From the IMG/VR virus record IMGVR_UViG_3300032038_000047, positions 1-22,992 of that record: a DNA stretch of 22,992 bases; one strand, given 5' to 3'. Numbering within the stretch: the first letter of the stretch is position 1; each line of letters opens with the position of its first letter. The DNA comes from a virus (taxonomy: Duplodnaviria > Heunggongvirae > Uroviricota > Caudoviricetes). Of this stretch, positions 1,446-22,300 are shown in pieces. The notes below the pieces were generated by a model, which saw only the letters and a program-made list of their open reading frames with translations, did no database searches and was not told where the DNA came from. The translations under genes and the position numbers were made by a program.

Positions 1446-1456
1446 AATTCAAAATG
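1446..1456 (+). repeat. AATTCAAAATG motif, copy 1
   Basis: Exact 11-mer overlapping the ATG of the 1454 gene. Confidence 0.85.
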
Positions 1457-2035
1457 ATTCTTTTTACAGAAGAGTTTCTTGCACACTATGGGGTACCCGG
1501 AATGAAATGGGGCATCCGACGCTATCAGCCCTACTCAATTCATCCTCGAAAAAGCGGAAAGAGCGGAATTGAATATGGAGAGGCCGTACGACGCGGCAAA
1601 ACTACAGTTGATCGATTGCTCGGCAGTAGTGACTATTCAAGAGAAGAAAAACGTGATATACTGCTAAAAGACGTACCGAAACAGTTTGTATCGGCTGAAG
1701 AAAGCGAACGTGTTATTAGCAACACAGGCGTAGATGCTAACGATGTCTTTCAAAAAGCATTAGAAGGTCGTCGGCATGCAGGTGTTTACAAGGACGCACT
1801 GGAGAAGACTCAAAAGCAGTTAGAAAGCTCGATTGGATCTCGCTTATATCAAGTTCAGGAGCATGATATAAAGATTGCACATCCTGCCGAGTTCGATGAT
1901 GACTGGGGAGTAAAGGATGACCGTGGGCAAGCTGGACTTCTTCACAAATGGGAAAAAGATCGTATACGAAACGCTGAACAAGCATCAATAGAACTTACAG
2001 TATGGAAAGAGAGATTTGGTCATGGTAACAATTAA
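1454..2035 (+). CDS. Leader-family protein 1, candidate toxin C-terminus
   Basis: Leader MILFTEEFLAHYGVPGMKWG; distinct C-terminal domain (RHAG...EHDIKIAHP...GLLHKWEKD..RN); overlaps a small acidic downstream gene. Confidence 0.85.
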   Translation: MILFTEEFLAHYGVPGMKWGIRRYQPYSIHPRKSGKSGIEYGEAVRRGKTTVDRLLGSSDYSREEKRDILLKDVPKQFVSAEESERVISNTGVDANDVFQKALEGRRHAGVYKDALEKTQKQLESSIGSRLYQVQEHDIKIAHPAEFDDDWGVKDDRGQAGLLHKWEKDRIRNAEQASIELTVWKERFGHGNN

Positions 2036-5026: not shown

Positions 5027-5527
5027 ATGCTTATTTTTTCAGAGGAATACCTCATGCATCATGGCATCCAAGGCCAGAAGTGGGGTGTTCGTAGGTATCA
5101 GAATTACGATGGGACTAGAACGGACACCGGAGCCAAGAGATATAGAAAGAAAGAAGCGCGTTCGTATACCAAGCAACTGAATAAAAATGATCAAAGTATA
5201 GCTACCAACATTGGTGTGCAGTACTATACTCCAGATATAGTGAACTACAATAAAAAACGGTATATCAAACAGTATGCTAACGGTAACGATAAGAAAGCGG
5301 AAAAGTATAAAACCAAAATGGAAAAGGCTCAAAATGAACTCACGACAAGCAGAGAACAAATTGAAGAAGCTAAAAGGATTGCAGTAAAGTTGGTAAAAGA
5401 AGCAGAATCAAAAGGCTATACTGTGAAAAAAACGGAAATAAGTAGGTTCATGTACAGTGATGGTAATTATAGCTATTACATGAGAGGAACGCATTATAAA
5501 GTTAAAGACATTCCTAACGTGTCATAA
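5027..5527 (+). CDS. Leader-family protein 2, basic coiled-coil C-terminus
   Basis: Leader MLIFSEEYLMHHGIQGQKWGVRRYQNYDG; GAGGTG RBS; Lys-rich. Confidence 0.85.
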   Translation: MLIFSEEYLMHHGIQGQKWGVRRYQNYDGTRTDTGAKRYRKKEARSYTKQLNKNDQSIATNIGVQYYTPDIVNYNKKRYIKQYANGNDKKAEKYKTKMEKAQNELTTSREQIEEAKRIAVKLVKEAESKGYTVKKTEISRFMYSDGNYSYYMRGTHYKVKDIPNVS

Positions 5528-5546: not shown

Positions 5547-6383
5547 ATGCTTTATTATTCAGAAGATTCCCTTGTGCATCATGGTGTTCAAGGGATGAAG
5601 TGGGGCATACGGAACGGCCCTCCCTATCCACTGACTGCTTCGTCTCATGGTGCAACACAAACACGTAATTCGGGAGAAAAAGCAGCACATAGAGTGTTAG
5701 ACAAGACCGAACATGATGGGCTATTAGCCGCTACTGCAATATATTTGGCACCTTACGTTGCGATGGGGGCTGTTGTTGCGGCGGCAGTGGTTGCCGATGC
5801 CGCACATGAAGCAAAAAGGAAAAAATCTATTTCAAAGAGCCAAGGTCAAGAATTGAAACGACAGGAAGAGCAAGAGCCATTGGAGAAGAGCTTGCTTTTG
5901 GCGAACCCCACTGCTGAAACAAGAAACTGCACAAACTGTTCTATTGCGGGAGTATTAAGAATGCAGGGCTATGATGTTTCTGCTCGGACTAGAAGCGCAA
6001 AAGTCGCTGGCGGTTTTGAAGAGTTTTTAAATTCTGCGTTCCATGACGCAAACGTCAAACGGCTGTCATCTACCGATCGAGCGTCGTTTGCTAGCTCTGC
6101 GGATGTTGCGGCTCGGTACTTGAAAAAAGAGTATGGCAATAATGCGGCCGGTGTAATTGCAGTTGGATGGAAGAATTCGTCATCTGGTCATGCGTTTTCT
6201 TGGAGAATTCAAAATGGTAAAGTCGAATTTCTTGACTTCCAAAGCGGGAGAGGCGATAATGATACTCGCAGGTATTGGCCACGGATCTCAACTGACAAGA
6301 GCATATTCTTTGCTCGATTAGATGATAAATCCCCGAACCTGGATACCATTTATGAGGTAATTCAGAACGGCATCAAGGTGTAA
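5547..6383 (+). CDS. Leader-family protein 3, papain-fold (Tox-PL-like) toxin
   Basis: Leader MLYYSEDSLVHHGVQGMKWG; hydrophobic helix; C-terminal NCTNC (C128/C131), GHAF (H215) and DFQ (D230) catalytic-type motifs. Confidence 0.8.
   Translation: MLYYSEDSLVHHGVQGMKWGIRNGPPYPLTASSHGATQTRNSGEKAAHRVLDKTEHDGLLAATAIYLAPYVAMGAVVAAAVVADAAHEAKRKKSISKSQGQELKRQEEQEPLEKSLLLANPTAETRNCTNCSIAGVLRMQGYDVSARTRSAKVAGGFEEFLNSAFHDANVKRLSSTDRASFASSADVAARYLKKEYGNNAAGVIAVGWKNSSSGHAFSWRIQNGKVEFLDFQSGRGDNDTRRYWPRISTDKSIFFARLDDKSPNLDTIYEVIQNGIKV
6206..6217 (+). repeat. AATTCAAAATGG motif, copy 2 (intragenic)
   Basis: Exact match inside the papain-fold gene. Confidence 0.6.
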
Positions 6384-7235: not shown

Positions 7236-7751
7236 ATGGAACTTCTGAATGAAGACTATCTCGCCCACCATGGCATCCTTGGGATGAAGTGGGGCGTTCG
7301 CAGGTATCAGAATGAGGATGGTACCTACACTTCTCTCGGAAAGATGAGAGAACGCGAGGAGTATAATGGCGACAGTGACGGAGAAAAAAAGAAAGATAAG
7401 GAACCGCCAAGTAAGAAAGCGTGGACAGCCGTGAGTGATTCCTTTCGAGCTGCTGCTGGTATCCCTGGGAAAGCGCATTCTGCAAATAAAGCAAAACGGC
7501 TTGGTAAAGAAGATATGAGTAAAATGTCTGACGAGGAACTCTTCGCTCGTACACAGCGCCTTACGCTTGAGCGTAATTACATGAACGCCCTGAGCCAGGC
7601 CGATGTTTCCTACGGAGCACAGCGGGCGCAGCAGGTGCTTGAGATCGCTGGAAGTTTGGCATCTATTGCCGCTGGCATCTCAAGTGCGAGCTATAACTTT
7701 AGTCAGGCCAGAGCGCTTAACGCTCAGACAAATTTGCTGACCGGATCGTAA
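7236..7751 (+). CDS. Leader-family protein 4, immediately upstream of terL
   Basis: Leader MELLNEDYLAHHGILGMKWGVRRYQNEDG; GGAGG RBS; KMSDEEL..R..RL.LE..Y segment and amphipathic C-terminus. Confidence 0.85.
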   Translation: MELLNEDYLAHHGILGMKWGVRRYQNEDGTYTSLGKMREREEYNGDSDGEKKKDKEPPSKKAWTAVSDSFRAAAGIPGKAHSANKAKRLGKEDMSKMSDEELFARTQRLTLERNYMNALSQADVSYGAQRAQQVLEIAGSLASIAAGISSASYNFSQARALNAQTNLLTGS

Positions 7752-9515: not shown

Positions 9516-10013
9516 ATGAACCTGTTATCAGAGAGTTTCCTGATTCATCATGGAATCAAAGGCCAAAAGTGGGGCGTGCGGAATGGGCCTCCGTATCCCT
9601 TGGATGATAGTCAAAATCGTAGAGCTGCCCATCATCGGAATCTGATAGAACGCGGGCGTGCATTTGTCTCATCCAATATGCACAGAATTAAGTACCGCCC
9701 CTTATCGGATATATACAACGGATTTGACGATGACGAGGACGAACTTGAAAAACTAACAATAGATGATATACTTAGTTTACCAAAGGCTCAAAGCCGATTG
9801 AAAATGTCATCTCAGACGTATGGCCATGTGATGCATGAGATTATGACCAATATTTCAAGCGAACAGCGCTTTACCGAAACCAGTTTTGTTAAGAATGTCG
9901 GCCAGTATTCATATGCAGTTTCAAATGATCTTGAAGGCGGGTTCGGCCTTATGGGTCGAGTTAAAATCAGTGAACTAATGAAACATTACGGAAATAAGAA
10001 TCGGGGTAAATAA
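9516..10013 (+). CDS. Leader-family protein 5, candidate toxin C-terminus
   Basis: Leader MNLLSESFLIHHGIKGQKWGVRNGPPYPL; C-terminal YGHVMHEIMTN...VGQYSYAVSN domain; small gene 3 nt downstream. Confidence 0.85.
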   Translation: MNLLSESFLIHHGIKGQKWGVRNGPPYPLDDSQNRRAAHHRNLIERGRAFVSSNMHRIKYRPLSDIYNGFDDDEDELEKLTIDDILSLPKAQSRLKMSSQTYGHVMHEIMTNISSEQRFTETSFVKNVGQYSYAVSNDLEGGFGLMGRVKISELMKHYGNKNRGK

Positions 10014-10016
10014 ATA

Positions 10017-10238
10017 GTGATTACAAAGCCTACACCAACTTCAGATGCGCTTTATGATGCAATTATCAAAATCAAAGACGACAATGATTTCGTTAGCTGG
10101 GTGCTTTCCTGTGCTGTGTACGAGCAGGATCAGCGGCTTCTGTTGGAATTGATACACTCTCGACCCGACATTGATTCGTCAACCATTGTCCGTGCCTGTT
10201 ATAATATAGCCCAAAAACGCGGATTGCTTGTTGAATAG
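10017..10238 (+). CDS. Candidate immunity protein for 9516..10013
   Basis: 73-aa helical protein, GTG start 3 nt after the upstream stop. Confidence 0.65.
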   Translation: MITKPTPTSDALYDAIIKIKDDNDFVSWVLSCAVYEQDQRLLLELIHSRPDIDSSTIVRACYNIAQKRGLLVE

Positions 10239-10242
10239 TCGT

Positions 10243-10269
10243 CCGCAACTTTTACAACGGCTATAATAG
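10243..10269 (+). promoter_or_regulatory. Promoter-like motif, copy 5
   Basis: CCGCAA CTTT TACAAC GGC TATAAT AG. Confidence 0.75.
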
Positions 10270-10279
10270 GAGAGAAGAT

Positions 10280-10320
10280 GAGAATGTGCCTTTTTATGGT
10301 GCATTCTCTTTCTTTTTATT
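10280..10320 (+). terminator. Intrinsic terminator directly after the promoter motif
   Basis: GAGAATGTGCC / GGTGCATTCTC stem then TTTCTTTTTATT. Confidence 0.7.
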
Positions 10321-10369
10321 TGCGACTGGTAAATTTTGCATCTTATTGCCGGGAGGTGATATTTCCATC

Positions 10370-11047
10370 ATGGATCTCTTTTCTGAAGAGTACCTTGCTC
10401 ACTATGGCGTTAAGGGAATGAAATGGGGCAAGCATCTGCCAGGCGTTTTCCCTGTGTTCGGGAACAATAGAGGTACAACGACCAATTACGCAGGAGCCTC
10501 TCGTTCCGCTGGATCTTTCCGCAGCCCGGCCAATACCGCTGGATATTCTCACGCCAGTGGAACTGTTAAACGGATAGCAGAAAAGCGTAGCGGATACACG
10601 CATACTACCGGAACAGCCCCACGCTCCGTCGAGAAGTCAATCAATCGTTCTCGTTCCAGTGGAACAGCGCCGCGCTCTATCGAAAAGTCAATCAATTATT
10701 CGCATTCCGGCGGCCATTTCAAGTCGGCGAGCGCAAGCAGGCCCTCTGGTACATCGCTTGGTGTAAGGGTAGCTTCCACTAGACCAACCACATCTGCTGC
10801 AGCCTATACTTCCCGGGTGCATTCCAGCATCTCACCAGCGCCAAAGGTGCAAGTCTATCCGCAGAAGCCTAGTGAGAAATTGACGGTATATCCACAGAAG
10901 CCGATGAAGATTTCAGATCAGACATGGGGCACTACACTTAAGAACCTGGGTTCCGCCGTTTCACAAACAGGACGCAAAGCAGCAATAAGCGTACTCAGTC
11001 TGATTCAAAATATCTCAGCAAAAGCGCTGCGTGCGCTGAACACATAG
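10370..11047 (+). CDS. Leader-family protein 6, Ser/Thr/Arg-rich low-complexity repeat protein
   Basis: GGAGGTG RBS, ATG 10370, leader MDLFSEEYLAHYGVKGMKWGK; short internal repeats. Confidence 0.85.
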   Translation: MDLFSEEYLAHYGVKGMKWGKHLPGVFPVFGNNRGTTTNYAGASRSAGSFRSPANTAGYSHASGTVKRIAEKRSGYTHTTGTAPRSVEKSINRSRSSGTAPRSIEKSINYSHSGGHFKSASASRPSGTSLGVRVASTRPTTSAAAYTSRVHSSISPAPKVQVYPQKPSEKLTVYPQKPMKISDQTWGTTLKNLGSAVSQTGRKAAISVLSLIQNISAKALRALNT

Positions 11048-11057
11048 GAGGAAAAAC

Positions 11058-11507
11058 ATGGATTTATTATCTGAAGAGTATCTTGCCCACCATGGTGTTC
11101 TTGGTCAGAAGTGGGGCGTCCGGAGATACCAGAATGCAGACGGGTCTTATACGGAAGCCGGAAAAGGTCGGTATGCTCAGAGTAGTAACAAATGGCTTTC
11201 TCGAAAAGTGAATGCGTCTAAAGAAGACCGTCAAGCCCATGGTAAAGAATTGGTTAGCAAGGGCAAAACCAGTGTAGGCGCTATAGGCAGAGCGGTTGTA
11301 CGGCATTATGTTGCCGGCGCTGCTACCGGCGCAGGCGTTTGGGGTGCGCTTGGTGTTGCTGCCGTTGTTGCCGCTCCCGCAGTCACGATTGGAGCCGCTG
11401 CCGCGGCTGCTGTTATGGTTGGTGCGGGAGCTACGTATCAGGTTAGCTCTGCCGTCCGTGGCTATCAGGAAGTAAGCGACATTCAGCAGTATCGCAATTC
11501 AAAATGA
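11058..11507 (+). CDS. Leader-family protein 7 with Gly/Ala-rich hydrophobic hairpin
   Basis: AGGAGG RBS; leader MDLLSEEYLAHHGVLGQKWGVRRYQNADG; about 40-aa G/A/V-rich segment. Confidence 0.85.
   Translation: MDLLSEEYLAHHGVLGQKWGVRRYQNADGSYTEAGKGRYAQSSNKWLSRKVNASKEDRQAHGKELVSKGKTSVGAIGRAVVRHYVAGAATGAGVWGALGVAAVVAAPAVTIGAAAAAAVMVGAGATYQVSSAVRGYQEVSDIQQYRNSK
11496..11506 (+). repeat. AATTCAAAATG motif, copy 3
   Basis: Exact match overlapping the stop of 11058..11507 and the RBS of the next gene. Confidence 0.85.
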
Positions 11508-11517
11508 GGTGACGTTT

Positions 11518-12159
11518 TTGGACCTATTCTCTGAAGAGTATCTTGCCCACTATGGCGTTAAAGGCATGAAATGGGGCAAGAACATTATGGCGAAAGCCGG
11601 TGATTTCCTTACTGGGGATCAATACAAAAAAAACGCTGACAACTATCAGCAGAAAGCCAACGCTTTTCAAAAGCAGGCTGCAAGTTATAGATACGCCGAA
11701 AGAACCAGCACCGCCGAACGGCGTCAGAATACACAGCGTGCTGCACGGGCTATTAGACAAGCGCAAGGTTATCAGCAATTAGCAAGTTCAAACAGCAAGA
11801 AATACAACAATCCTGTAAGAAAAACAATTCGTAATATTTCTTCAACCGCTAATTCAGTACAGAAAAAAGCGGGGAATCTTATTACTGGGAGCCAATACAA
11901 AAAGCAAGCCGCAAGTAATCAGCAAAAGGCGAACTACTATCGTAACCAAGTTGCTGAGCTTAGTTCTGCAGAAAACGCCAATGCTACCGATCGTCGCCAG
12001 AATACTCAAAAAGCATCGCGGGCAGCGAAGCAAGCCCAAGGTTATCAGTATCTGGCCGATAAAGCAATAAAAAATTATCAGACGAAGTCTGTTGCTGGTA
12101 TTGCCACGAGTACCGTAAACAAAGGCCTGGATTTCATCAAAAATCTATTCGGCAATTGA
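11518..12159 (+). CDS. Leader-family protein 8 with 63-aa tandem duplication
   Basis: TTG at 11518, 6 nt after GAGGTG, gives MDLFSEEYLAHYGVKGMKWGK, identical to the 10370 leader. Confidence 0.85.
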   Translation: MDLFSEEYLAHYGVKGMKWGKNIMAKAGDFLTGDQYKKNADNYQQKANAFQKQAASYRYAERTSTAERRQNTQRAARAIRQAQGYQQLASSNSKKYNNPVRKTIRNISSTANSVQKKAGNLITGSQYKKQAASNQQKANYYRNQVAELSSAENANATDRRQNTQKASRAAKQAQGYQYLADKAIKNYQTKSVAGIATSTVNKGLDFIKNLFGN

Positions 12160-12174
12160 AGTTAAGGAGGCAAC

Positions 12175-13449
12175 ATGCCACCACTTACAACACGGCTGAG
12201 GCATGCCTGGAATGCCTTCACCAATAACAAAGATCCCACTTACAATCCTGACTGGATGGGGTACAGTAGTTCTCTCCGTCCAGATCGGGTGCGATATTCT
12301 CGTGGGAATGAGCGGTCCATCATTACAGCAGTGTACACACGCATTGCTATTGATGTGGCCGCTGTTTCTATTCAACACGTTCGACTGGACGAGAACGGCA
12401 GCTTCCTTGAGACAATCAACAGTCCGCTAAACGACTGCCTGAATGTGGAGGCAAATGTCGACCAGACTGGCCGGGCCTTCATTCAGGATCTCGTCGAGAG
12501 TATGTTCGATGAGGGCTGTGTAGCGATCGTCCCAACGGACTGTTCGGCCAATCCCTTGCTCACCAGCTCCTATGATATTTTGTCGATGCGGGTCGGCAAG
12601 ATCACGCAGTGGGGCCCATCCTGGGTACGGGTCCGGCTCTACAATGAGCGCACCGGTCAGCAGGAAGAGGTCACGCTCGCCAAGCAGCAGGTGGCTATCA
12701 TTCCGAACCCGCTATACTCGGTGATGAATGAGCCTAACTCTACCTTCCAGCGGCTGATCCGTAAGCTGAACCTGTTGGATACCATTGACGAACAATCTTC
12801 CTCCGGGAAGCTGGACCTGATCATTCAGCTCCCGTATACGATCAAGACAGAGGCCAGACGGCAGCAGGCAGAACAGCGCCGGAAAGACATTGAGATGCAG
12901 CTGGCCGGGACTAAGTACGGAATCGCCTACACAGATGGTACGGAGCGTATTACCCAGCTCAATCGCTCTGTTGAGAATAACCTGATGAGTCAGATCGAAT
13001 ACCTGACGAGCATGCTATACAGCCAGTTGGGATTGACGACCTCGATCTTTGACGGAACAGCAGACGAGAAGACCATGCTGAATTATTATAGCCGCACCAT
13101 CGAGCCGATCCTCTCCGCCATTGTGGATGAGATGGTTCGGAAGTTCCTGACCAAAACCGCCAGAACCCAGGGGCAGAGCATCATGTTCTTCCGGGATCAG
13201 TTCAAGTTGGTTCCTGTTGGCCAGGTGGCTGAGATTGCTCAGACACTGGTCAGCACAGAGATCGCCACTCCTAACGAGATGCGTGCGGTGATTGGATGGA
13301 AACCAGTGAACGACGCCCGGGCCGATTCATTGATGAACCGAAACATCAATACAGTCCCGGAAGAGGGACAGGAGGAAGTGCCCGTCGAGGAAGATTACGC
13401 CGAATACCCGGAAGAAGTATACTCCGAGGAAGAATACCCTGAAGAATAA
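12175..13449 (+). CDS. Portal protein
   Basis: 424 aa between terL and protease; AAGGAGG RBS; IAIDVA..., GKLDLIIQLP, TPNEMRAVIG portal-type segments; acidic EEYPEE tail. Confidence 0.92.
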   Translation: MPPLTTRLRHAWNAFTNNKDPTYNPDWMGYSSSLRPDRVRYSRGNERSIITAVYTRIAIDVAAVSIQHVRLDENGSFLETINSPLNDCLNVEANVDQTGRAFIQDLVESMFDEGCVAIVPTDCSANPLLTSSYDILSMRVGKITQWGPSWVRVRLYNERTGQQEEVTLAKQQVAIIPNPLYSVMNEPNSTFQRLIRKLNLLDTIDEQSSSGKLDLIIQLPYTIKTEARRQQAEQRRKDIEMQLAGTKYGIAYTDGTERITQLNRSVENNLMSQIEYLTSMLYSQLGLTTSIFDGTADEKTMLNYYSRTIEPILSAIVDEMVRKFLTKTARTQGQSIMFFRDQFKLVPVGQVAEIAQTLVSTEIATPNEMRAVIGWKPVNDARADSLMNRNINTVPEEGQEEVPVEEDYAEYPEEVYSEEEYPEE

Positions 13450-13456
13450 AGGAGCA

Positions 13457-13468
13457 AATTCAAAATGG
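13457..13468 (+). repeat. AATTCAAAATGG motif, copy 4
   Basis: Exact match overlapping the ATG of the protease-capsid gene. Confidence 0.85.
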
Positions 13469-15519
13469 CAGAACGTTACGATTTTAGTGGCTGGGCTACT
13501 AAGAACGATCTGAGGTGCTCCGACGGACGAACAATCCGACGGGATGCATTCAAGGATAACGATGGCCAGATTGTACCGCTCGTATGGCAGCATCAGCATA
13601 ACGACCCCAGCAATGTTCTGGGACACGCCCTTCTGGAGAACCGTCCGGAGGGCGTTTATGCATATGGCAGCTTTAATGATACAGCGGAAGGCCAGAGGGC
13701 CAAGGCGCTGGTGGAGCACGGAGACATTACCTCTCTGTCCATCTTTGCCAACAAGCTCAAACAGAGCCCTGCTAAAGATGTGCTGCACGGAGTGATCCGG
13801 GAAGTGAGCCTGGTGCTCTCTCCGGCAAACCCCGGTGCCAGCATCGAATTCCCGGTCATGGCTCACGGCGATGACTTTGAGGAAATTGAGGACGAGGCCA
13901 CCATCTATACTGGTGAGCCTCTTTATCTTGCCCATGCGGACGACTCTGAGGAAGAGGAAACCGAAGATGACGGCGAGACCGTGAAGGACGTATTTGACAC
14001 TCTAACAGAGAAACAGAAGAAGGTCGTCTACTTTATGATTTCTCAGGCTCTTGAGCAAGAAGGCCTTAAAGCCAAGAAAAAGGAGCCCGAGGAGAAAGAA
14101 GACAGCACAGACGAAGAGAACGGTGAAACTGTAAAACATGCGGATTCTTCCGATGAAGAAGAGGACGCAGAATCTACCGATAAAGAAGGAGGAGCCAAGA
14201 TGGCTGATTCTAAGGAAAAGACCGTTAAGGATGTATTCGACGAGCTCACTGAAGAGCAGAAGAACGTCGTTTACTTTATGATCGGACAGGCTCTGGAGGA
14301 CGCGAAGAAGGGCGGCAAATCCAGCGCTCCTGCCGATACTGAGGAAGATGAGGAAGACGAGCCCGCCCAGCATTCTTATTACGGAGGCAATGACATGAAG
14401 TACAACGTGTTCGACAACAGCTACGACCAGCCGCAGGAGACCCTGAGCCATGCGGAGATCGAGACCATCTTTACCGATGCCCGCCGCATGGGCTCTCTGC
14501 GTGATGCTGTTCTGCAGCATATGGAGGACGGCGTGCTGAGCCATGCTGTTTACAATACCGCGGCCGACGGCTCCCAGGGCACTCAGCAGACCTACGGCAT
14601 GGCCAATGTGGACTACCTGTTCCCGGACGCCCAGACGCTGAACAACATTCCGACCACCATGAACGGCAACACTGCCTGGGTCAAGGATGTCATGGGCGGC
14701 GTGCATCACACTCCCTTCTCCCGTATCAAGAGCGTCGTGGCCGACATCACCATGGAGGAGGCTCGGGCCAAGGGTTACCTCAAGGGCAACCAGAAGAAGG
14801 ACGAGGTCTTTGCGCTGCTCAAGAGAGAGACCAACCCCCAGACCGTGTACAAGAAGCAGAAGATGGACAAGGATGACATCAATGATATCACCAGCTTCGA
14901 CGTTGTCGCCTGGCTGAAGGCTGAGATGCGCGGCAAGCTTGACGAGGAGTTGGCCCGTGCGATCCTGATCGGCGACGGCCGCGGCGTGTCCGATGATGAC
15001 AAGATCAAGGAGGATCGTATTCGTCCCATCGCTACCGATGCCGACCTGTACACCATCAAGTCCCCTGTTACTGCCGGTACTGATGACGCCGGCACCGCCA
15101 AGAACATCCGCCGGGCGATTCTGGTGGGTATGAAGACCTATGATGGCTCCGGTTCTCCCGTGCTGTTCACTTCCAACAAGTGGCTCAACGAGCTCATGCT
15201 GCTGGAAGACGGCATCGGCCATCCCATGTACGAGACCGAGGAGAAGCTGGCTGCGGCCCTGCGGGTTAAGAAGGTCATCCCCGTGCCGATTATGGATGGT
15301 AAGACTGTAAATGACGCCGAGCTGGTGGGCATCGTGGTCAACCTGAACGACTATAACGTCGGTGCGGACAAGGGCGGCGCCGTAAGCCTGTTCGATGATT
15401 TCGATATCGACTACAACCAGCAGAAGTTCCTGATCGAGACCCGGTGCTCCGGCGCTCTGACCGTGCCTCATTCCGCGATCTGCCTGACCGTGGCGGCTGC
15501 GGAGAGCACTGGCGGCTAA
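13465..15519 (+). CDS. Prohead protease-scaffold-major capsid fusion (HK97-like)
   Basis: N-terminal FSGWAT...VPLVWQHQH...VLGHA...LSIFAN protease; acidic linker with duplicated 27-aa helix; capsid domain from about 14395 with strong C/G third-position bias. Confidence 0.92.
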   Translation: MAERYDFSGWATKNDLRCSDGRTIRRDAFKDNDGQIVPLVWQHQHNDPSNVLGHALLENRPEGVYAYGSFNDTAEGQRAKALVEHGDITSLSIFANKLKQSPAKDVLHGVIREVSLVLSPANPGASIEFPVMAHGDDFEEIEDEATIYTGEPLYLAHADDSEEEETEDDGETVKDVFDTLTEKQKKVVYFMISQALEQEGLKAKKKEPEEKEDSTDEENGETVKHADSSDEEEDAESTDKEGGAKMADSKEKTVKDVFDELTEEQKNVVYFMIGQALEDAKKGGKSSAPADTEEDEEDEPAQHSYYGGNDMKYNVFDNSYDQPQETLSHAEIETIFTDARRMGSLRDAVLQHMEDGVLSHAVYNTAADGSQGTQQTYGMANVDYLFPDAQTLNNIPTTMNGNTAWVKDVMGGVHHTPFSRIKSVVADITMEEARAKGYLKGNQKKDEVFALLKRETNPQTVYKKQKMDKDDINDITSFDVVAWLKAEMRGKLDEELARAILIGDGRGVSDDDKIKEDRIRPIATDADLYTIKSPVTAGTDDAGTAKNIRRAILVGMKTYDGSGSPVLFTSNKWLNELMLLEDGIGHPMYETEEKLAAALRVKKVIPVPIMDGKTVNDAELVGIVVNLNDYNVGADKGGAVSLFDDFDIDYNQQKFLIETRCSGALTVPHSAICLTVAAAESTGG

Positions 15520-15529
15520 TTCAAAATGG
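15518..15529 (+). repeat. AATTCAAAATGG motif, copy 5
   Basis: Exact match overlapping the capsid stop codon. Confidence 0.85.
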
Positions 15530-15634
15530 GAGTCCGAGAGCAGCGTTGGAATGCTGAATACTAATACGTTCCATTGTATTCTCTGCGCGCACCAACGGCG
15601 GACTGGCGCTGCTCTTTGATGAAGGAGGATCTCT

Positions 15635-15970
15635 ATGGCGAAATACTATGGGACAATCGGCTTTGAATCCCAGGACGAAATCCGCCCTGGCGTATGGGGG
15701 CCGGTTGTTACGGAGCGACGGTATTTTGGGGATATACTCAAGAATACACGCCGCTGGCAAAACGGCCAAAGTATCAACGATGATCTGAACGTGAGCAACA
15801 CCTTCAGCATTGTCGCTGATCCATACGCCATGGATCACTTCCATACCATGAAGTACATCGAGTGGATGGGAACCAAATGGAAAATCACTGACGTCGATGT
15901 ACAGTACCCTCGGCTGAATCTGTCTGTGGGAGGTGTCTACAATGCCAATCCAACTGGACCGCAGGCTTGA
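15635..15970 (+). CDS. Head-closure / head-tail adaptor protein
   Basis: AAGGAGG RBS; beta-rich 111 aa (YIEWMGTKWKITDVDV..PRL) after the capsid gene. Confidence 0.7.
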   Translation: MAKYYGTIGFESQDEIRPGVWGPVVTERRYFGDILKNTRRWQNGQSINDDLNVSNTFSIVADPYAMDHFHTMKYIEWMGTKWKITDVDVQYPRLNLSVGGVYNANPTGPQA

Positions 15971-16265
15971 GCTTCATGAGGAGCTCTGCGGCCTCCTCGG
16001 AACAAGGTACGCATATTTCCAGCCTCCTCCGACAGTTCAGCTGCATTACCCCTGTTTTGTGTACGACCGGTCAAACAGCAATGATCTCGCTGCAGACGAC
16101 AAGAGCCGGTACCTGCACAGACAGGGGTATTCCATTACCTACATCGCATTTGATCCGGATGATCCGATGGTTGATCAGGTGGTCGAGCACTTCCAGTATT
16201 GCCGCTGGAGCCGCCACTATACTGCGGATAATCTGCATCATGATGTATTCACACTCTATTATTAG
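15942..16265 (+). CDS. Tail terminator / neck protein
   Basis: GGAGGTG RBS, ATG 15942; YFQPP...YPCFVY...Y.ITYI..DPD pattern; directly upstream of the major tail gene. Confidence 0.7.
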   Translation: MPIQLDRRLELHEELCGLLGTRYAYFQPPPTVQLHYPCFVYDRSNSNDLAADDKSRYLHRQGYSITYIAFDPDDPMVDQVVEHFQYCRWSRHYTADNLHHDVFTLYY

Positions 16266-16277
16266 GAGGAAAAAGAA

Positions 16278-17078
16278 ATGGCAAAGCTTATGTGGGACAA
16301 GACCGGTGAACGTTTCTTTGAGACCGGTGTACACCACTGCGTTGTGTATCCCTTTACTTCTGCGAACAATGGTAAGGGATTTTTCTACAATGTAGACGAA
16401 ACCGCTGAAAGCAATAAAAAGTATTCCAACTATGGCCCCGGCGTTGCTTGGAATGGTATTTCTTCTATCAGCGAGTCTGCTGACGGCGGTGACTCCAACC
16501 CCATCTATGCCGACGACATCAAGTATATTGATCTGCGGTCTCTTGAGGATCTGAATCTCAGCCTGGAAGCTTATATGTATCCGGTTGAATTTGCCGTCCT
16601 CGATGGAAGCGCAGATCTCGGGAACGGCATCATGATTGGTCAGCAGCGCCGCCAGATGTTCGGTCTGAGCTACGAAACTCGTGTAGGCAACGACGTTGAC
16701 TACGAGGACTATTCCAGAAAGATTCATCTGGTTTACGGCTGTATGGCCGCTCCCACCGAGAAGGGTTACGAAACCATCAATGATTCTCCTGAGGCGATCA
16801 CTTTCTCCTGGGACATCAGCACCACGCCTATCGCGGTTGAAATTGCCGGCAAGAGCTATAAGCCCACCTCGATTCTGACCATTGAGGTTAATGAGAAGCT
16901 GCTTGATCCGACAAATGATGCTGAAGGGGCAGCTGCGTATCGGGCGGCGTATAAGAAACTGACGGACGCTCTTTATGGCGTGGATGCAGACTCTACTGCT
17001 ACTCCGCCCATTGCTCAGTCGCAACCTTATCTGCCTACCCCGAAGGAAGTCTATGCTTTTTTCAACCCGGGGTCGTAA
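16278..17078 (+). CDS. Major tail protein
   Basis: AGGAGG RBS; WDKTGERFFETGV...GVAWNGI..ISES...YADDIKY siphovirus tail-tube pattern. Confidence 0.9.
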   Translation: MAKLMWDKTGERFFETGVHHCVVYPFTSANNGKGFFYNVDETAESNKKYSNYGPGVAWNGISSISESADGGDSNPIYADDIKYIDLRSLEDLNLSLEAYMYPVEFAVLDGSADLGNGIMIGQQRRQMFGLSYETRVGNDVDYEDYSRKIHLVYGCMAAPTEKGYETINDSPEAITFSWDISTTPIAVEIAGKSYKPTSILTIEVNEKLLDPTNDAEGAAAYRAAYKKLTDALYGVDADSTATPPIAQSQPYLPTPKEVYAFFNPGS

Positions 17079-17203
17079 CTTCACAGGCTGAAGAGAACGA
17101 CCCTGACTCCGTCGGAGAGCCTGATAACGAACCGGACAATGGTCCCGATGATGATCCGCTGACTCCTGAAGAAGAGCCGGAGGATGACCCCGAGAATCCA
17201 TAA
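17057..17203 (+). other. Candidate -1 programmed frameshift site and 46-codon extension of the major tail protein
   Basis: T TTT TTC (17057-17063), 6-nt spacer, stem-loop 17070-17103; -1 frame open to TAA 17201-17203 with no start codon of its own. Confidence 0.75.
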
Positions 17204-17218
17204 GAAGAAAGGGTGAAC

Positions 17219-17279
17219 AACTGCACAGTGCTTTGCTGCTACTTGTTTGTACGGCGGGCACTGTGCAGTTTCAGGTTTT
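17219..17279 (+). terminator. Long hairpin / probable terminator after the major tail gene
   Basis: Perfect 13-bp inverted repeat AACTGCACAGTGC (17219-17231) / GCACTGTGCAGTT (17258-17270); U-tract is imperfect. Confidence 0.6.
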
Positions 17280-17308
17280 ACAGGTCACATTTTTTCTACA
17301 GTCAACAA

Positions 17309-17320
17309 AATTCAAAATGG
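17309..17320 (+). repeat. AATTCAAAATGG motif, copy 6
   Basis: Exact match upstream of the chaperone RBS. Confidence 0.85.
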
Positions 17321-17341
17321 CATCTGAAAGGAGATCCAACC

Positions 17342-17743
17342 ATGATCAAGAAAACTATTACTTACACCGATTATAACGGTACCGAGCGCACTGAGGACTT
17401 TTACTTCCATCTTACCGAAGCGGAGATTATGGAAATGTCCCTCGGCGTGGACGGCGGCTTGGAACAGATGATTCGCAGGATCATTGCCGCCCAGGATGTT
17501 CCCCAGCTCGTGGCGACATTCAAGGATATTCTTCTCCGTTCCTATGGCGAGAAGTCTCCGGATGGCAAGCGGTTTATCAAGACTCCCGAGGTTCGGGAAG
17601 CCTTCACTCAGACAGAGGCATATTCCAAGCTGTTCATGGAGCTGGCTACCAACGCTGACTCTGCCACCGCGTTTATGAACGGCGTGATCCCGGCCGATCT
17701 TAAGAAGCAGCTTCCTCAGGGCAGTCCGGCACCGGTAAAATAA
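17342..17743 (+). CDS. Tail assembly chaperone
   Basis: AAAGGAG RBS, ATG 17342; 133 aa between major tail and tape measure genes. Confidence 0.75.
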   Translation: MIKKTITYTDYNGTERTEDFYFHLTEAEIMEMSLGVDGGLEQMIRRIIAAQDVPQLVATFKDILLRSYGEKSPDGKRFIKTPEVREAFTQTEAYSKLFMELATNADSATAFMNGVIPADLKKQLPQGSPAPVK

Positions 17744-17761
17744 AAGAAAGGGGACAAGAGC

Positions 17762-18304
17762 GTGCTCAAACTTTATATTTCGCCGAAAGAAGAGTTTGAT
17801 CCTGTCACGAGTACGTTTGTGTCGGTGAAGGGTCAAACACTTACTCTGGAGCACTCTTTGGTCTCCTTGTCCAAGTGGGAATCAAAATATTGCAAGCCTT
17901 TTCTGAGTCGAGATAATAAAACGCGGGAACAACTGATTGACTATGTGGAATGCATGACCTTAACCCAGAACGTCGATCGAGAGGTCCTCGAACATATCAG
18001 TGACAAAGAGTTCAAGCAGATCGTCGATTATATTGAAGCGCCGATGACAGCAACGACGTTCTCGGAAACGCAGAAAAAACCAAGTCGTGAAATCATCACA
18101 GCAGAGATTCTATACTATGATATGATCGCACTGAACATCCCGATGGAATGTCAGAAGTGGCATCTCAATCGACTTATCACGTTGATCCGGGTTTGCAGTA
18201 TTAAGAATTCCCCAAAGAAGAAAAAAATGAGCAAAAAGGCGCTCGCCAAACGGAATGCTTCTTTGAATGCAGCAAGGCGGGCGGCCACCGGCTCTTCTGG
18301 ATAG
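17762..18304 (+). CDS. Second tail assembly protein (pre-tape-measure)
   Basis: GTG start with GAAAGGGG RBS; LEHSLVSLSKWES...ITAEILYY.M...WHLNRL pattern typical of tail modules. Confidence 0.7.
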   Translation: MLKLYISPKEEFDPVTSTFVSVKGQTLTLEHSLVSLSKWESKYCKPFLSRDNKTREQLIDYVECMTLTQNVDREVLEHISDKEFKQIVDYIEAPMTATTFSETQKKPSREIITAEILYYDMIALNIPMECQKWHLNRLITLIRVCSIKNSPKKKKMSKKALAKRNASLNAARRAATGSSG

Positions 18305-18333
18305 TTGCGTTTTCTTTCTACCTATGGTATTAT
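18305..18333 (+). promoter_or_regulatory. Housekeeping sigma promoter with extended -10
   Basis: TTGCGT-17 nt-TATTAT with TG at 18325-18326. Confidence 0.75.
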
Positions 18334-18358
18334 CAGGGTGAAAGGAAGGTGGACGTAC

Positions 18359-18901
18359 ATGGCTGCCAGAAGTTTAATATGTCCAAGCTGTGGTGGGCAT
18401 ATAGAAGTTACACAGGATCTTATGCAGTATTTTTGTCCTTATTGTGGGGCAAATGTTACAGCTGATGACGGAATCCAGCGTGTTCTGATTCGTGACGAAG
18501 CAAAGCTGAAGGAATTGGAGCTTCAGGAAGAGGAACGCATTCGCCAAGAACAAGAGGAGCAGCGACAGGCAGAAATCCTCGCTGTGGCGAAAAAGCGGTG
18601 GAGAGTAGCATTGGTTCTATACTTAGGAGCCTGGCTACTATACTCACTTGCAGTGTACCTCTTCCCAAAGCTTGTAGATCTTTTATCCGGTGTTAATACT
18701 GCAATTGCCACTATATGGTTGTTTCTCGGTCCATTGTTTATTCAATTTGCCTACCCGTTTACAGATGCAAATGGGCACTATGTTAGACTTGGCAAAAATG
18801 AAAATATATCGAAAAAACGAGTGTTTCTCATGGCCGTGATTCTTTTCTTTGTGCAAGTACTGATTATTTCAGCCATAAGCGGCATTTTCTCCAATTCATA
18901 A
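18359..18901 (+). CDS. Zinc-ribbon, coiled-coil, multi-TM membrane protein (moron)
   Basis: GAAAGGAAGG RBS, ATG 18359; CPSCG...CPYCG; E/Q coiled coil; three hydrophobic segments. Confidence 0.85.
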   Translation: MAARSLICPSCGGHIEVTQDLMQYFCPYCGANVTADDGIQRVLIRDEAKLKELELQEEERIRQEQEEQRQAEILAVAKKRWRVALVLYLGAWLLYSLAVYLFPKLVDLLSGVNTAIATIWLFLGPLFIQFAYPFTDANGHYVRLGKNENISKKRVFLMAVILFFVQVLIISAISGIFSNS

Positions 18902-18911
18902 AAGTACTTAC

Positions 18912-18941
18912 AGAGCTCTCTTCGGAGGGCTCTTTTTTTTT
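18912..18941 (+). terminator. Intrinsic terminator
   Basis: AGAGCTCTC-TTCG-GAGGGCTCT then a long T-run. Confidence 0.9.
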
Positions 18942-18966
18942 ATGCTCGCAAGATGGAAAATTCTGT

Positions 18967-18978
18967 AATTCAAAATGG
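18967..18978 (+). repeat. AATTCAAAATGG motif, copy 7
   Basis: Exact match after the moron terminator, where the tail operon resumes. Confidence 0.85.
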
Positions 18979-18989
18979 GAGGTAATTGC

Positions 18990-19373
18990 TTGATCAGTTT
19001 CTCGCATAAGGGAGATTTCAGCAAAACTGAAAAGTTCCTCACAAAGGCGCAGACACACCAATTTGCCTCCATTCTCAGCAAGTATGGTGAAAAAGGAGTT
19101 GCCGCACTACAGGCAGCCACCCCGGTCGATACCGGAGAAACTGCTGCCTCCTGGGATTATGAAATCGAAGAAAGTGCTAATTCTGTGACTATTCATTGGG
19201 TCAATCATCATACAGCGCCAACAAACTCCAATGTGAATATCGCGCTGATCCTTCAGCTGGGCCATGGCACCCGCAATGGCGGCTACGTGGTCGGCAGGGA
19301 CTACATTAATCCGGCGATGCGACCGGTGTTTGACGAAATTGCCGACGAGGTTTGGAACGAGGTGAATAGTTAA
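18990..19373 (+). CDS. HK97 gp10-like tail/neck component
   Basis: TTG start 7 nt after GGAGG; ATPVDTGETAASW...IALILQLGHGT..GGYV.G..YI.PA pattern. Confidence 0.75.
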   Translation: MISFSHKGDFSKTEKFLTKAQTHQFASILSKYGEKGVAALQAATPVDTGETAASWDYEIEESANSVTIHWVNHHTAPTNSNVNIALILQLGHGTRNGGYVVGRDYINPAMRPVFDEIADEVWNEVNS

Positions 19374-22300
19374 TGCCGGATATTGACAATCGCATCGTAA
19401 AGATGCAATTTGACAACGGCCAGTTTGAAAGCGGTGTCAAAGAAAGTCTCAGTACGCTGGATAAGCTCAAAAATGCGCTGGATTTCAAGTCAAGCGTAAA
19501 GAGCATGCAAAACCTGTCAGATGCCGGCAAAGGGCTATCTAACAGTCTGAACTTTGACGGTGTTCTGAAAGGCCTGGAGCAAATCAATGATCGGTTCTCC
19601 ATCGTGGGAATGGTCGTCCAGAACCTGAAAACGCAGGCCGCTGATGCGCTTACCAGTATTACTACGGAACTTGCAAAGACAACGGCAGCGGTTACTCCAC
19701 TTGGGAATGCCCTCAGTGAGATCACAACCGGGTTTAATTATCTTGCTACCAGTGTCCAGTCCATGACGCCTGCAGCAAACATGATGGCTGGCTGGGAGAA
19801 ATATGCCGACAAAACCCAGTCCGTTCAGACGATTATGAACGCAACGGGTTTGTCCATTGATGAGGTCAGTTCGCAGCTTGACAAACTGATGTGGTATACC
19901 GATGAGACCAGTTACAATTTCAATGACATGGCCTCGAACATCGGTAAGTTCACATCTCAGGGTATTGATCTTGAGACGGCGTCTACAGCTATGATGGGTA
20001 TCGCCAACTGGGCGGGCCTGTCTGGTGCAAAAGTTGCAGAAGCCAGCCGCGCCATGTATAACATTTCGCAGGCAATGGGCATGGGATACATGTCGCAGAT
20101 GGACTGGAAGTCTATTGAGAACGCCAATATGGCTACTCAGGAATTCAAACAGACAGTCATTGACGCCGCGGTTGCAGAGGGCACGCTTCAAGAAGTTGCC
20201 GATGGGCTGTACGTTGATATGAAGGGCAACGAAGTCTCTGTCAATAATTTCAGGGAAAATCTGAAGGATGGCTGGTTTGACAAAGACGTTATGCTGCACA
20301 GTTTGCAGGACTATGGCGATTATGTCAATGAAGTATATAAAGTCGCAGAGGAATTCGGCGTTAGCTGCGCCGAAGCCATGGATATTGTCAATGATCTGAA
20401 CGGTGTCACGGGCACACTTGGAGAAAGGGCGTTTCGTGCAGCTCAGGAAGCCAAAACTTTTGGCGATACTGTAGAGGCTATTAAAGATGCCGTTTCTTCC
20501 GGATGGATGTCGATCTTTGAGAATATATTTGGTAATTATAACGAAGCAAAGGTTGTTTGGACCTGGTGGGCAAACGAGCTTTGGGATGTCTTTGCGGGAC
20601 CCCTTGACGAACTAAACCAAAAGCTGTCTGGATGGCATCGAGGGATCACTGACGTTTTTGGAGCCCTTGATGCACTTGGGATCAGTTATGAAGGACTGGA
20701 GTGGTGGGCGGACAAAGCATTTGATGGCGACGTACTCGAAACATTTCGGTATCTGCTCAGTGATGTGGATACCATGGTCAAATATGCAGGTGTCGACGCG
20801 AAAACCGCTCTGGAGATTCAAAATGAATACCTGGCGACGACTTCCGATGGCTTAACCGGTTATGAAGCTGGGATCGAGGCCGTCTGGTATGCATGGCGCG
20901 GTGTTGGCGAAATACTCGAAATCGTTGGTGACGCATGGCACGAAGCATTTCCCGAGTCAACAGTGCAGTCCATGGTGTCCTTCACTGAATCTCTGCGGGA
21001 TAGTATGAAGTCGCTATATGATGCGTTCAACGTCGGCGATTTTGAGTATGGCACAGGGTCCATCGAAGAACGAGCAGAAGCAATTGGATATACTGTTGAA
21101 CAGATAGAGTGGGCTGCAAAAAATTGGTTCCAGGGAGACTTGACTGGAGCCATAATGTGGGCGGAAGATCTTGATTATCTTGGTATTTCCATGTCCGATC
21201 TTGCCGCTGCTGCAGATAAATACTTTAATGGCGACATAAACGAAGCACGTTTTGCTGCTATCGCAAACATGACGGAAACCGGCAAAGTCATGGCCGACAC
21301 CATGGACGAATGCCAAGCTAATGTGGACAAATTTACGGCTGCATGGGATCGTTCTGAGAACCTAAGTGCAACGGTCAGCGGGCTTGCTAATGGACTTGGC
21401 ATCATTAAAGATTTTCTTGGCGCGATAAAAAACGTGGTTTTGGAGCCTATCTTTGGAAAAATCCCCAATTTGTTTGACAAGCTATTAGATAGAACAGCAA
21501 AACTTGGGATGCAACTTATCGGCCTTCGTCATCGGCTTCAGGAAAGCGGCTTCTTCGAGGAAAAGCTTCAGAAGATCGTGACATGGGTTACCGGTCTGGG
21601 TAAGCAGATAAACACAATTTGGAACAGCATTAAGAATCTGGACTCGGTTAAGCAGTTGTTGGAAAACCTCAAGCAGATCAAGAACTGGTTCAAGAGCATT
21701 GGCAAAGGTGCGCTTGATACTATTTCAAATTTTCTTGACGACCTGTCTGGCGGTGATCATGCCGAGGGTATCAACAATATTGTCGGCGCTGTGGACGCGC
21801 TGGTCAGCGGTCTGAACTGGCTGATTGATACGGTGCAATCTGGATACGGTGCGGTAAAGACCTTCTTTGAGTCGCTGGATTATTCTTCTATCGGAACGTT
21901 CTTCAGCAGTGTCGTTAGCTCCTTTGGCGGAGACGGCTCGGCGGCAGGCGGGATAATTTCTAACCTATCAAAAATCGGTGAGACGTTGCAGGGGTTCTTT
22001 AGCATAATTCTAGGAAACGGCGCGAATGCCTTTGACACCGGAAAGAGTCTGGTTGCTAATCTGTTTAACGGTATTGCAGCCGGATTTAATGATGGAACGC
22101 TGATCGCAAATCTGAAGACTGCTGCCGGTTATCTGCTTGGCATGGATATTCTTCTGAAGCTGATTCAGGGAACAAGCGCCGTAACAAAAATGATTACCGG
22201 GCTTGCCGATCTGCCGGAGAAGCTGGGCAAAGTACTTGACGGCACTCTCGGCGTTTTGGAAAGTTATCAGACAGAGCTTCGCACCGAGTCCATTAAAAAT

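Follow-up and report, generated by a model that had tools for sequence, protein, structure and literature searches.

A hydrophobic-x-histidine motif marks predicted cleavage sites in a phage protease-scaffold-capsid fusion protein and in DUF7211 leaders

Introduction

A 22,992-nucleotide stretch of phage DNA (hereafter, the window), the first 23 kb of the 87-kb IMG/VR record IMGVR_UViG_3300032038_000047 of a gut phage, carries a head gene whose product is predicted to combine a serine protease, an acidic scaffold spacer (residues 134-360) and an HK97-fold capsid protein, in that order. Eight genes around the terminase and portal genes of the window start with a common leader, the Pfam family DUF7211 (PF23847). 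The locus raises the question of where the fused protease would cut its own polypeptide, and whether the leaders would be clipped in the same way. An earlier note on this DNA had proposed that the protease cuts after a hydrophobic-x-His motif in both. Here we found that this motif is family-wide in the spacers of homologous fusion proteins, stands at both domain boundaries and recurs in every DUF7211 leader context collected, pointing to histidine as the candidate P1 residue. In the literature, within the limited reach of our search, we found no description of His at P1 for any capsid protease, and the papers found describe the fusion protein only as a gene fusion.

Results

Spacer histidines of the window share one context

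The earlier note had counted seven histidines in near-identical contexts between the protease and the capsid domain. All seven were borne out at the positions it gave, and residues 134-360 hold exactly these seven (Table 1, where an arrow marks the predicted cut). Each has a hydrophobic residue or Ala two residues upstream (−2), and six of the seven are followed by Gly, Ala or Ser; with the strict set of L/I/V/M/F at −2, six of the seven match. With 40 Glu and 28 Asp, the 234-residue spacer is strongly acidic; L/I/V/M/F/A/Y/W/C account for 31% of its residues and L/I/V/M/F for 20%. When the spacer was shuffled, the observed matches at −2 (7/7 with the broad set or 6/7 with the strict set) were reached in about one of 10,000-20,000 shuffles (p ~5e-5), and of 20,000 shuffles none gave the joint pattern of a hydrophobic residue at −2 with G/A/S at +1. 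We defined the pattern with the sequence already in view, and later confirmed it on independent homologues, the window's own protein being excluded.

The motif is conserved across the fusion-protein family

A HMMER scan yielded 1,714 cluster representatives (50% identity) of the fusion protein. We analysed the best 150 of them together with the window's own protein (151 in all), and took as spacer the sequence between two conserved anchors, NPGA in the protease and LFP in the capsid N-arm. Conservation in related capsid genes had been set beforehand as a check on the proposal; once run, it revealed a family-wide motif that is present at both domain boundaries. Among the 1,072 histidines in 32,007 spacer residues, 88.3% have L/I/V/M/F at −2, compared with a background of 21% and with 10-27% for the other 19 residue types. 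The family context extends further, with S/A/G at +1 in 65%, D/E at +2 in 57% and mainly acidic residues from −6 to −4. Ala at −2, as in the window's H303, is found in 4% of the family's spacer histidines. Individual spacers hold 4-17 histidines (mean 7.1), and the fraction of these in the motif has a median of 0.89 per protein and is 1.0 in 68 proteins.

The histidines are also placed where a protease of this architecture would be expected to act. In 151/151 proteins, a His lies at most 20 residues past the protease domain, counted from the NPGA anchor, and in 145 of them it has L/I/V/M/F at −2. Likewise, 151/151 have a His at most 45 residues before the capsid N-arm, the last His lying mainly 7 or 11 residues before LFP. 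In a 100-sequence alignment, H134 was invariant and H157 and H352 were at least 90% conserved, and the other 770 spacer histidines, which lie in poorly alignable sequence, still had a hydrophobic residue at −2 in 85%. The capsid domain differs from the spacer in both respects: His makes up 1.1% of its residues versus 3.3% in the spacer, only 27.5% of these histidines have a hydrophobic residue at −2, and 4% show the full motif. A residue other than His at the boundaries or in DUF7211 was sought among the 151 fusion proteins and the 234 leader contexts described below, and none was found.

A like pattern is present in the isolated phages FP_oengus, Lactococcus P162, Arthrobacter CapnMurica, Gordonia Schwartz33, Rhodococcus ReqiPoco6, Streptomyces FrodoSwaggins, Microbacterium Camille and Bifidobacterium BitterVaud1. 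The family infects Actinobacteria and Firmicutes, and its members include cultured phages of Arthrobacter, Gordonia, Streptomyces, the Lactococcus 1706 group and Faecalibacterium. Since the hosts span Lactococcus to Streptomyces, the motif signal acts at the protein level.

DUF7211 leaders end in a spacer-like motif

The eight DUF7211 genes of the window scored 30.8-44.1 bits, above the gathering threshold of 27 bits; no further DUF7211 match was found elsewhere in the 87-kb genome. With the starts indicated by ribosome-binding sites (ATG 10370 and TTG 11518 for the genes concerned), every one of the eight leaders comes to exactly 11 residues, Met and His with nine others between them. The identity between YLAH in the spacer and residues 8-11 of four leaders, as previously remarked, holds for exactly four of the eight (genes 7236, 10370, 11058 and 11518). 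We then searched the window and 160 fetched loci for DUF7211 contexts, using a pattern that left the His position free, and obtained 234 distinct ones. His was present in 234/234, and P3 was L (218), I, F or M in 234/234. P2 was free, with sixteen residues seen, and H, Y, F, W or S occupied P1′. A substrate bound as an extended strand would be expected to show this alternation, constrained at P3 and P1 and free at P2.

The resemblance to the spacer sites goes beyond L-x-H. A matrix of spacer sites, built without the window's own protein, scored the −7 to −1 segment of the leaders high even when −2 was left out (Mann-Whitney p ~1e-17, a value that is only indicative because the controls include non-coding frames and the leaders are mutually related). 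The eight payloads behind the leaders match different PHROGs. Across 235 payload regions, the sequences are basic (19% K+R) and low in His (1.2%), and hydrophobic-x-His occurs at 13.6% versus a background of 19.5% (z ~−3.5, by a normal approximation from the counts). Such a depletion is expected if these sites would be cut inside the head. A complex prediction of the protease domain with a 40-residue leader, run without controls, gave a score of 0.02 and weighs neither way.

Some DUF7211 tags are not N-terminal. A 707-residue protein at locus L018 (1613-3736) carries three complete tags with His at residues 45, 270 and 411, each following an acidic or Ser-rich segment that closes with D/E-F-(I/L)-A-H, and from its sequence it looks like a cargo polyprotein. 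In Schwartz33 gp16 (annotated as an RNA ligase; L005:8351-10051) and ReqiPoco6 gp015 (L006:5951-7567), a tag stands near residue 350 and separates a large N-terminal domain from about 200 C-terminal residues. These internal joints would fit polyprotein processing. DUF7211 was mentioned in no paper found, and Pfam assigns the family no function.

DUF7211 and the fusion gene occur together

All nine fusion-bearing phage genomes examined have DUF7211 genes, 1-7 in each. In the opposite direction, the fusion gene was within the fetched flank of 106 of 152 DUF7211 loci (56/79 from IMG/VR and 50/73 from bacterial genomes), these loci being the closest relatives of the window's leaders and not the whole of DUF7211. 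Nearly all loci without the fusion gene in the flank end too soon. L018, L055, L097 and L130 are possible exceptions; each of them stops, or may stop, short of the head gene. Within the phage collection, DUF7211 hits and the fusion protein have parallel host distributions. GenBank lists the DUF7211 genes of ReqiPoco6 and ReqiPepy6 as coding for structural proteins of the virion and cross-refers to a Lactococcus phage 1706 structural protein. Contigs with the module were also seen in metagenome-assembled genomes assigned to Methanosphaera, Methanobrevibacter, Muribaculaceae, Phocaeicola and Saccharibacteria (L101, L143, L089, L092 and others). The placement of a Clostridia-type phage module in these genomes probably reflects mis-binning, not true hosts.

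The fused protease is modelled with the herpesvirus assemblin fold

The fusion protein matched Pfam Peptidase_S78 (PF04586) at residues 23-128 with 27.0 bits (cut-off 21) and Phage_capsid (PF05065) at residues 424-673 with 37.8 bits, above the curated cut-off. It also matched phrog_3270 (E = 9e-235), and its homologues in isolated phages carry the annotation 'major capsid and protease fusion protein'. A PDB sequence search with the whole fusion protein gave no match. The full-length AlphaFold2 (AF2) model (mean predicted local distance difference test, pLDDT, of 81) has a compact protease domain at residues 1-133 and an HK97-fold capsid domain. Between them, the model has disordered stretches at 134-169, 203-249, 284-323 and 358-364, helices at 173-198 and 254-282 that form a repeated scaffold pair, and a further helical pair at 329-357. 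Five of the seven sites (H134, H157, H225, H303 and H360) fall where pLDDT is below 50. As 134-169 is disordered in the full-length model, no docking in cis of VMAH into the active site was seen.

Modelled alone, the protease domain reached a pLDDT of 95.8. In Foldseek, its top 50 matches were all herpesvirus proteases (probability 0.97-1.00), and the assemblins of pseudorabies virus (pUL26N), Kaposi's sarcoma-associated herpesvirus, Epstein-Barr virus and human cytomegalovirus were matched with a probability of 1.00, E values from 6e-5 and a template modelling score of about 0.6. The modelled domain thus has the herpesvirus assemblin fold. Among the candidate catalytic residues in the family alignment, S92 and H43 do not vary, H108 reaches at least 90% conservation and position 54 has His as its consensus. 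Foldseek with the capsid part returned capsids of gene transfer agents, HK97, T5 and actinobacteriophages, with E values of ~1e-11 down to 6e-13. A cut after H352 would leave 332 residues and a cut after H360 would leave 324, comparable with the matched solved capsid chains (targets of ~260-396 residues; 294-373 alignment columns). If all seven sites were cut, the spacer would fall into pieces of 23, 68, 78, 26, 23 and 8 residues.

Other features of the locus

The coordinates of the features are collected in Table 1. The portal protein has a possible further site near its N-terminus, RLRH↓AW. At this column, six of nine family portals have L-x-H, and R, Q or N stands in the remaining three; the portal may be clipped here at its N-terminus.

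The scaffold helix block VKDVFD-x-LTE-x-QK-x-VVYFMI-x-QALE is duplicated in the window (13981-14058 and 14224-14310), and the consensus of most relatives appears to hold one copy. Two in-frame internal ATGs of the head gene lie behind good ribosome-binding sequences, the ATG at 14200 (M246) with AAGGAGG 7 nt upstream (14184-14202) and that at 14395 (M311) with GGAGG 7 nt upstream (14383-14397). From sequence, these starts could yield scaffold-coat products that lack the protease, like herpesvirus UL26.5. A AATTCAAAATG motif stands at the starts of gene 1454 and of the head gene at 13465 (positions 1446 and 13457), with ATTCAAA abutting both ATGs, and a further AATTCAAAATG copy lies at 11496, just upstream of the gene starting at 11509/11518.

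Table 1 Positions of the head gene, the candidate cleavage sites and the DUF7211 leaders in the window
Feature	Position	Strand	Basis or remark
Leader 1, ends FLAH, then YG-x-x-GMKWG	1454..1486	+	DUF7211 43.9 bits
Leader 2, ends YLMH	5027..5059	+	DUF7211 33.7 bits
Leader 3, ends SLVH	5547..5579	+	DUF7211 33.6 bits
Leader 4, ends YLAH	7236..7268	+	DUF7211 44.1 bits
Large terminase gene	7756-9504		
Leader 5, ends FLIH	9516..9548	+	DUF7211 30.8 bits
Leader 6, ends YLAH; ATG 10370 after GGAGGTG ribosome-binding site	10370..10402	+	DUF7211 42.7 bits
Leader 7, ends YLAH	11058..11090	+	DUF7211 34.1 bits
Leader 8, ends YLAH if the start is TTG 11518 (after GAGGTG)	11518..11550	+	DUF7211 42.5 bits
Portal gene	12175-13449		
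Portal N-terminus, RLRH↓AW (His is residue 10), possible further site	12193..12204	+	
Protease-scaffold-major capsid protein fusion gene, 684 aa (P0001)	13465..15519	+	Pfam, PHROG matches
Protease domain, residues 1-133	13465..13863	+	AF2, Foldseek
Candidate site 1, VMAH↓G (H134), right after the last protease-domain strand	13855..13866	+	Invariant; first residue of disordered segment 134-149
Candidate site 2, YLAH↓A (H157), same as residues 8-11 of four leaders	13924..13935	+	At least 90% conserved; pLDDT below 50
Two repeated scaffold helices (residues 173-198, 254-282) with an acidic disordered stretch between	13981..14310	+	AF2 secondary structure
Candidate site 3, VKH↓A (H225), between both scaffold helices	14131..14139	+	Disordered 203-249
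Candidate site 4, AQH↓S (H303), Ala at P3, weakest site	14365..14373	+	Disordered segment 284-314
Candidate site 5, LSH↓A (H329)	14443..14451	+	Fits family consensus LSH-x-D; N-terminal end of helix 329-342
Candidate site 6, LQH↓M (H352), in conserved GSL(K/R)xxxLxH block, candidate capsid maturation site	14512..14520	+	At least 90% conserved
Candidate site 7, LSH↓A (H360), last His before capsid N-arm, alternative or additional candidate maturation site	14536..14544	+	Disordered 358-364
Predicted mature HK97-fold capsid protein, residues 361-684	14545..15519	+	Foldseek

Discussion

The conservation and placement of the motif argue that the spacer is cleaved after His by the fused prohead protease, which we regard as probable with good confidence. 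For the DUF7211 leaders, the evidence tilts only somewhat toward cleavage after His. We infer the following course of events. After shell assembly, the protease would cut (acidic)(acidic)-x-x-hydrophobic-x-His↓small-acidic. A cut at H134, at the end of the protease domain, would be akin to the herpesvirus release site (R-site); several cuts in the spacer would produce pieces of 8-78 residues able to exit the shell; and a cut at H352, H360 or both, before the capsid N-arm, would give a mature coat protein of 324-332 residues. The 11-residue acidic leader would bring its basic payload into the acidic scaffold core, in the style of the T4 capsid-targeting sequence (CTS), and would then be clipped after His to expose a new payload N-terminus, (H/Y)G-x-x-G-x-KWG.

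Could the pattern instead have arisen by chance or from the composition of a spacer that is acidic and of low complexity? It was defined after the sequence had been inspected, which speaks for this explanation. The shuffles (p ~5e-5), the 88% versus 21% background in homologues, the boundary placement in 151/151 proteins and the persistence of the motif across Gordonia, Streptomyces, Lactococcus and Faecalibacterium phages speak against it, and we count it as refuted. Recognition of the motif by a host protease rather than by the fused one has a precedent, as host Prp cleaves for the staphylococcal phage 80alpha. However, the same motif is shared by phages of Actinobacteria and Firmicutes, which always have a protease domain of their own with an invariant Ser, and a host enzyme is very unlikely. 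We also hold it unlikely, if less so, that hydrophobic-x-His is an uncleaved docking motif for the shell interior, the portal or a protease exosite and that the cuts fall at other sites. A short docking motif conserved in disordered sequence would look alike, but the invariant copies stand exactly at the two domain boundaries where cuts are needed, no other spacer residue type shows a context bias that would mark alternative sites, and the P3/P1 pattern with a small P1′ agrees with the sites known for proteases of this fold.

The rival explanation that deserves the most attention leaves cleavage of the spacer after His in place and denies that the leaders are substrates. L-x-H would then be part of an extended element for binding or structure (L-x-H-aromatic-G-x-x-G-x-KWG), one that anchors the payload within the head or has a role in the next host, and its likeness to the spacer sites would reflect convergence, or mimicry without cleavage. 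The prime side of the leaders is unlike that of the spacer sites, the conserved core extends 13 residues past the His, and the motif can sit deep in proteins, at about residue 350 in Schwartz33 gp16 and ReqiPoco6 gp015, all of which this explanation accommodates. It accounts less well for a non-prime side that is like the spacer sites beyond L-x-H, for fixed P3 and P1 with a free P2, for payloads that avoid the motif, and for a pre-His length that is 11 residues here and elsewhere ranges from 6 residues to whole domains, as for a disposable propeptide. We consider it a minority possibility, improbable but to be taken seriously.

Several points weigh against cleavage after His in the spacer and the leaders. 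Within the spacer, H352 lies inside a confidently predicted helix (345-357) and is followed by Met, and H303 has Ala at P3. The His contexts of homologous proteins are non-independent observations. Three histidines within the protease domain, in LGH54-A, VEH85-G and VLH108-G (13591-13788 in the window), share the hydrophobic-x-His-small context; as these conserved residues have L or V at −2, the context can have a structural cause, and at these three it may be a structural coincidence or be tied to self-inactivation. In the leaders, the prime side is H/Y/F/W followed by Gly, in contrast to small followed by acidic at the spacer sites, and the 13 conserved residues past the His need a second function, to which the His could belong. 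In records and the literature, we found no mature N-terminus, semi-specific peptide or gel size for any family member. The proposal of the earlier note thus stands in part: for the protease, the motif is family-wide, at the boundaries and sparse in the capsid domain, and a cleavage product was not found; for the leaders, the His is invariant (234/234) and the payloads are depleted, and the prime side and the 13 residues do not follow from it. Because no mature N-terminus was found, and because of the prime side and these 13 residues, we place the combined reading, a His-cutting prohead protease with a T4-CTS-like tag, only a little above even.

The comparison with T4 is the closest for the leaders. 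T4 gp21 recognises L/I-x-E and cuts behind it in scaffold and coat protein as well as at the end of the 10-residue CTS. Within the CTS, targeting depends on residues 4 and 7 and processing on residues 8 and 10; T4 propeptides hold several redundant sites, and other basic proteins of related phages bear similar tags (PMC9026906). The T4 analogy drawn in the earlier note holds in detail, since CTS residues 8 and 10 are P3 and P1 and correspond to L9 and H11 here. Both phages, ours at the sequence level, repeat hydrophobic-x-P1 in the scaffold, at the maturation site of the coat protein and at the close of an N-terminal tag of about 10 residues, and the tag is common to unrelated, mostly basic head-module proteins (IPI-III and Alt in T4; eight genes here). 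The two systems differ in P1, which is predicted to be His here and is Glu in T4, and in the protease, which here is of the S78/HK97 branch and forms one chain with scaffold and coat protein. In addition, the DUF7211 tag continues with a 13-residue conserved block after the predicted cut, and the present phage is a siphovirus of Gram-positive bacteria whose cleavage is predicted from sequence, unlike that of T4.

The protease itself resembles that of herpesviruses. In pUL26 the protease precedes the scaffold, the release site is YLQA↓T and the maturation site VQA↓S in pseudorabies virus, and UL26.5 is a nested in-frame gene (PMC4498786). The phage protein shares with pUL26 the modelled protease fold, the position of the protease N-terminal to the scaffold, a putative R-site at the protease end (YLQA↓T versus YLAH and VMAH here) and a second candidate site that would separate scaffold from coat protein; the internal starts at 14200 and 14395 could parallel UL26.5. 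Unlike in the phage, P1 is Ala in the herpesvirus protein, and its scaffold binds the coat protein non-covalently instead of being fused to it. Assemblin and T4-type proteases both use hydrophobic-x-P1 sites.

With HK97 (gp4 protease and gp5 with its delta domain), the phage shares the Pfam families Peptidase_S78 and Phage_capsid, the coat fold and a scaffold that extends the coat protein at its N-terminus, which the protease removes in HK97 and is predicted to remove here. The protease is a separate gene in HK97, and it is encapsidated via its own C-terminal tail; HK97 gp5 is matured after Lys103. We know of no leader-tagged cargo family for HK97. The window's phage would thus combine T4 and herpesvirus designs with an HK97-style scaffold-coat fusion and a predicted P1 His.

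At its widest, this reading would make histidine the P1 residue across a very large siphophage head-protease family and DUF7211 a portable load-and-clip tag, a generalisation to which we give even chances. Any protein or polyprotein string behind DUF7211 would be packed into the head and released there. If this is true, DUF7211 would be assigned a function, the widespread 'major capsid and protease fusion' proteins would receive their first cleavage code, and the hydrophobic-x-P1 grammar of assemblin-fold proteases would gain a new P1 residue. Cultured members of the family exist, making the reading easily tested. Mature coat N-termini and head-internal cargo would become predictable from sequence through the motif, and the leader would provide a simple tag for loading foreign proteins into the heads of phages of Gram-positive bacteria.

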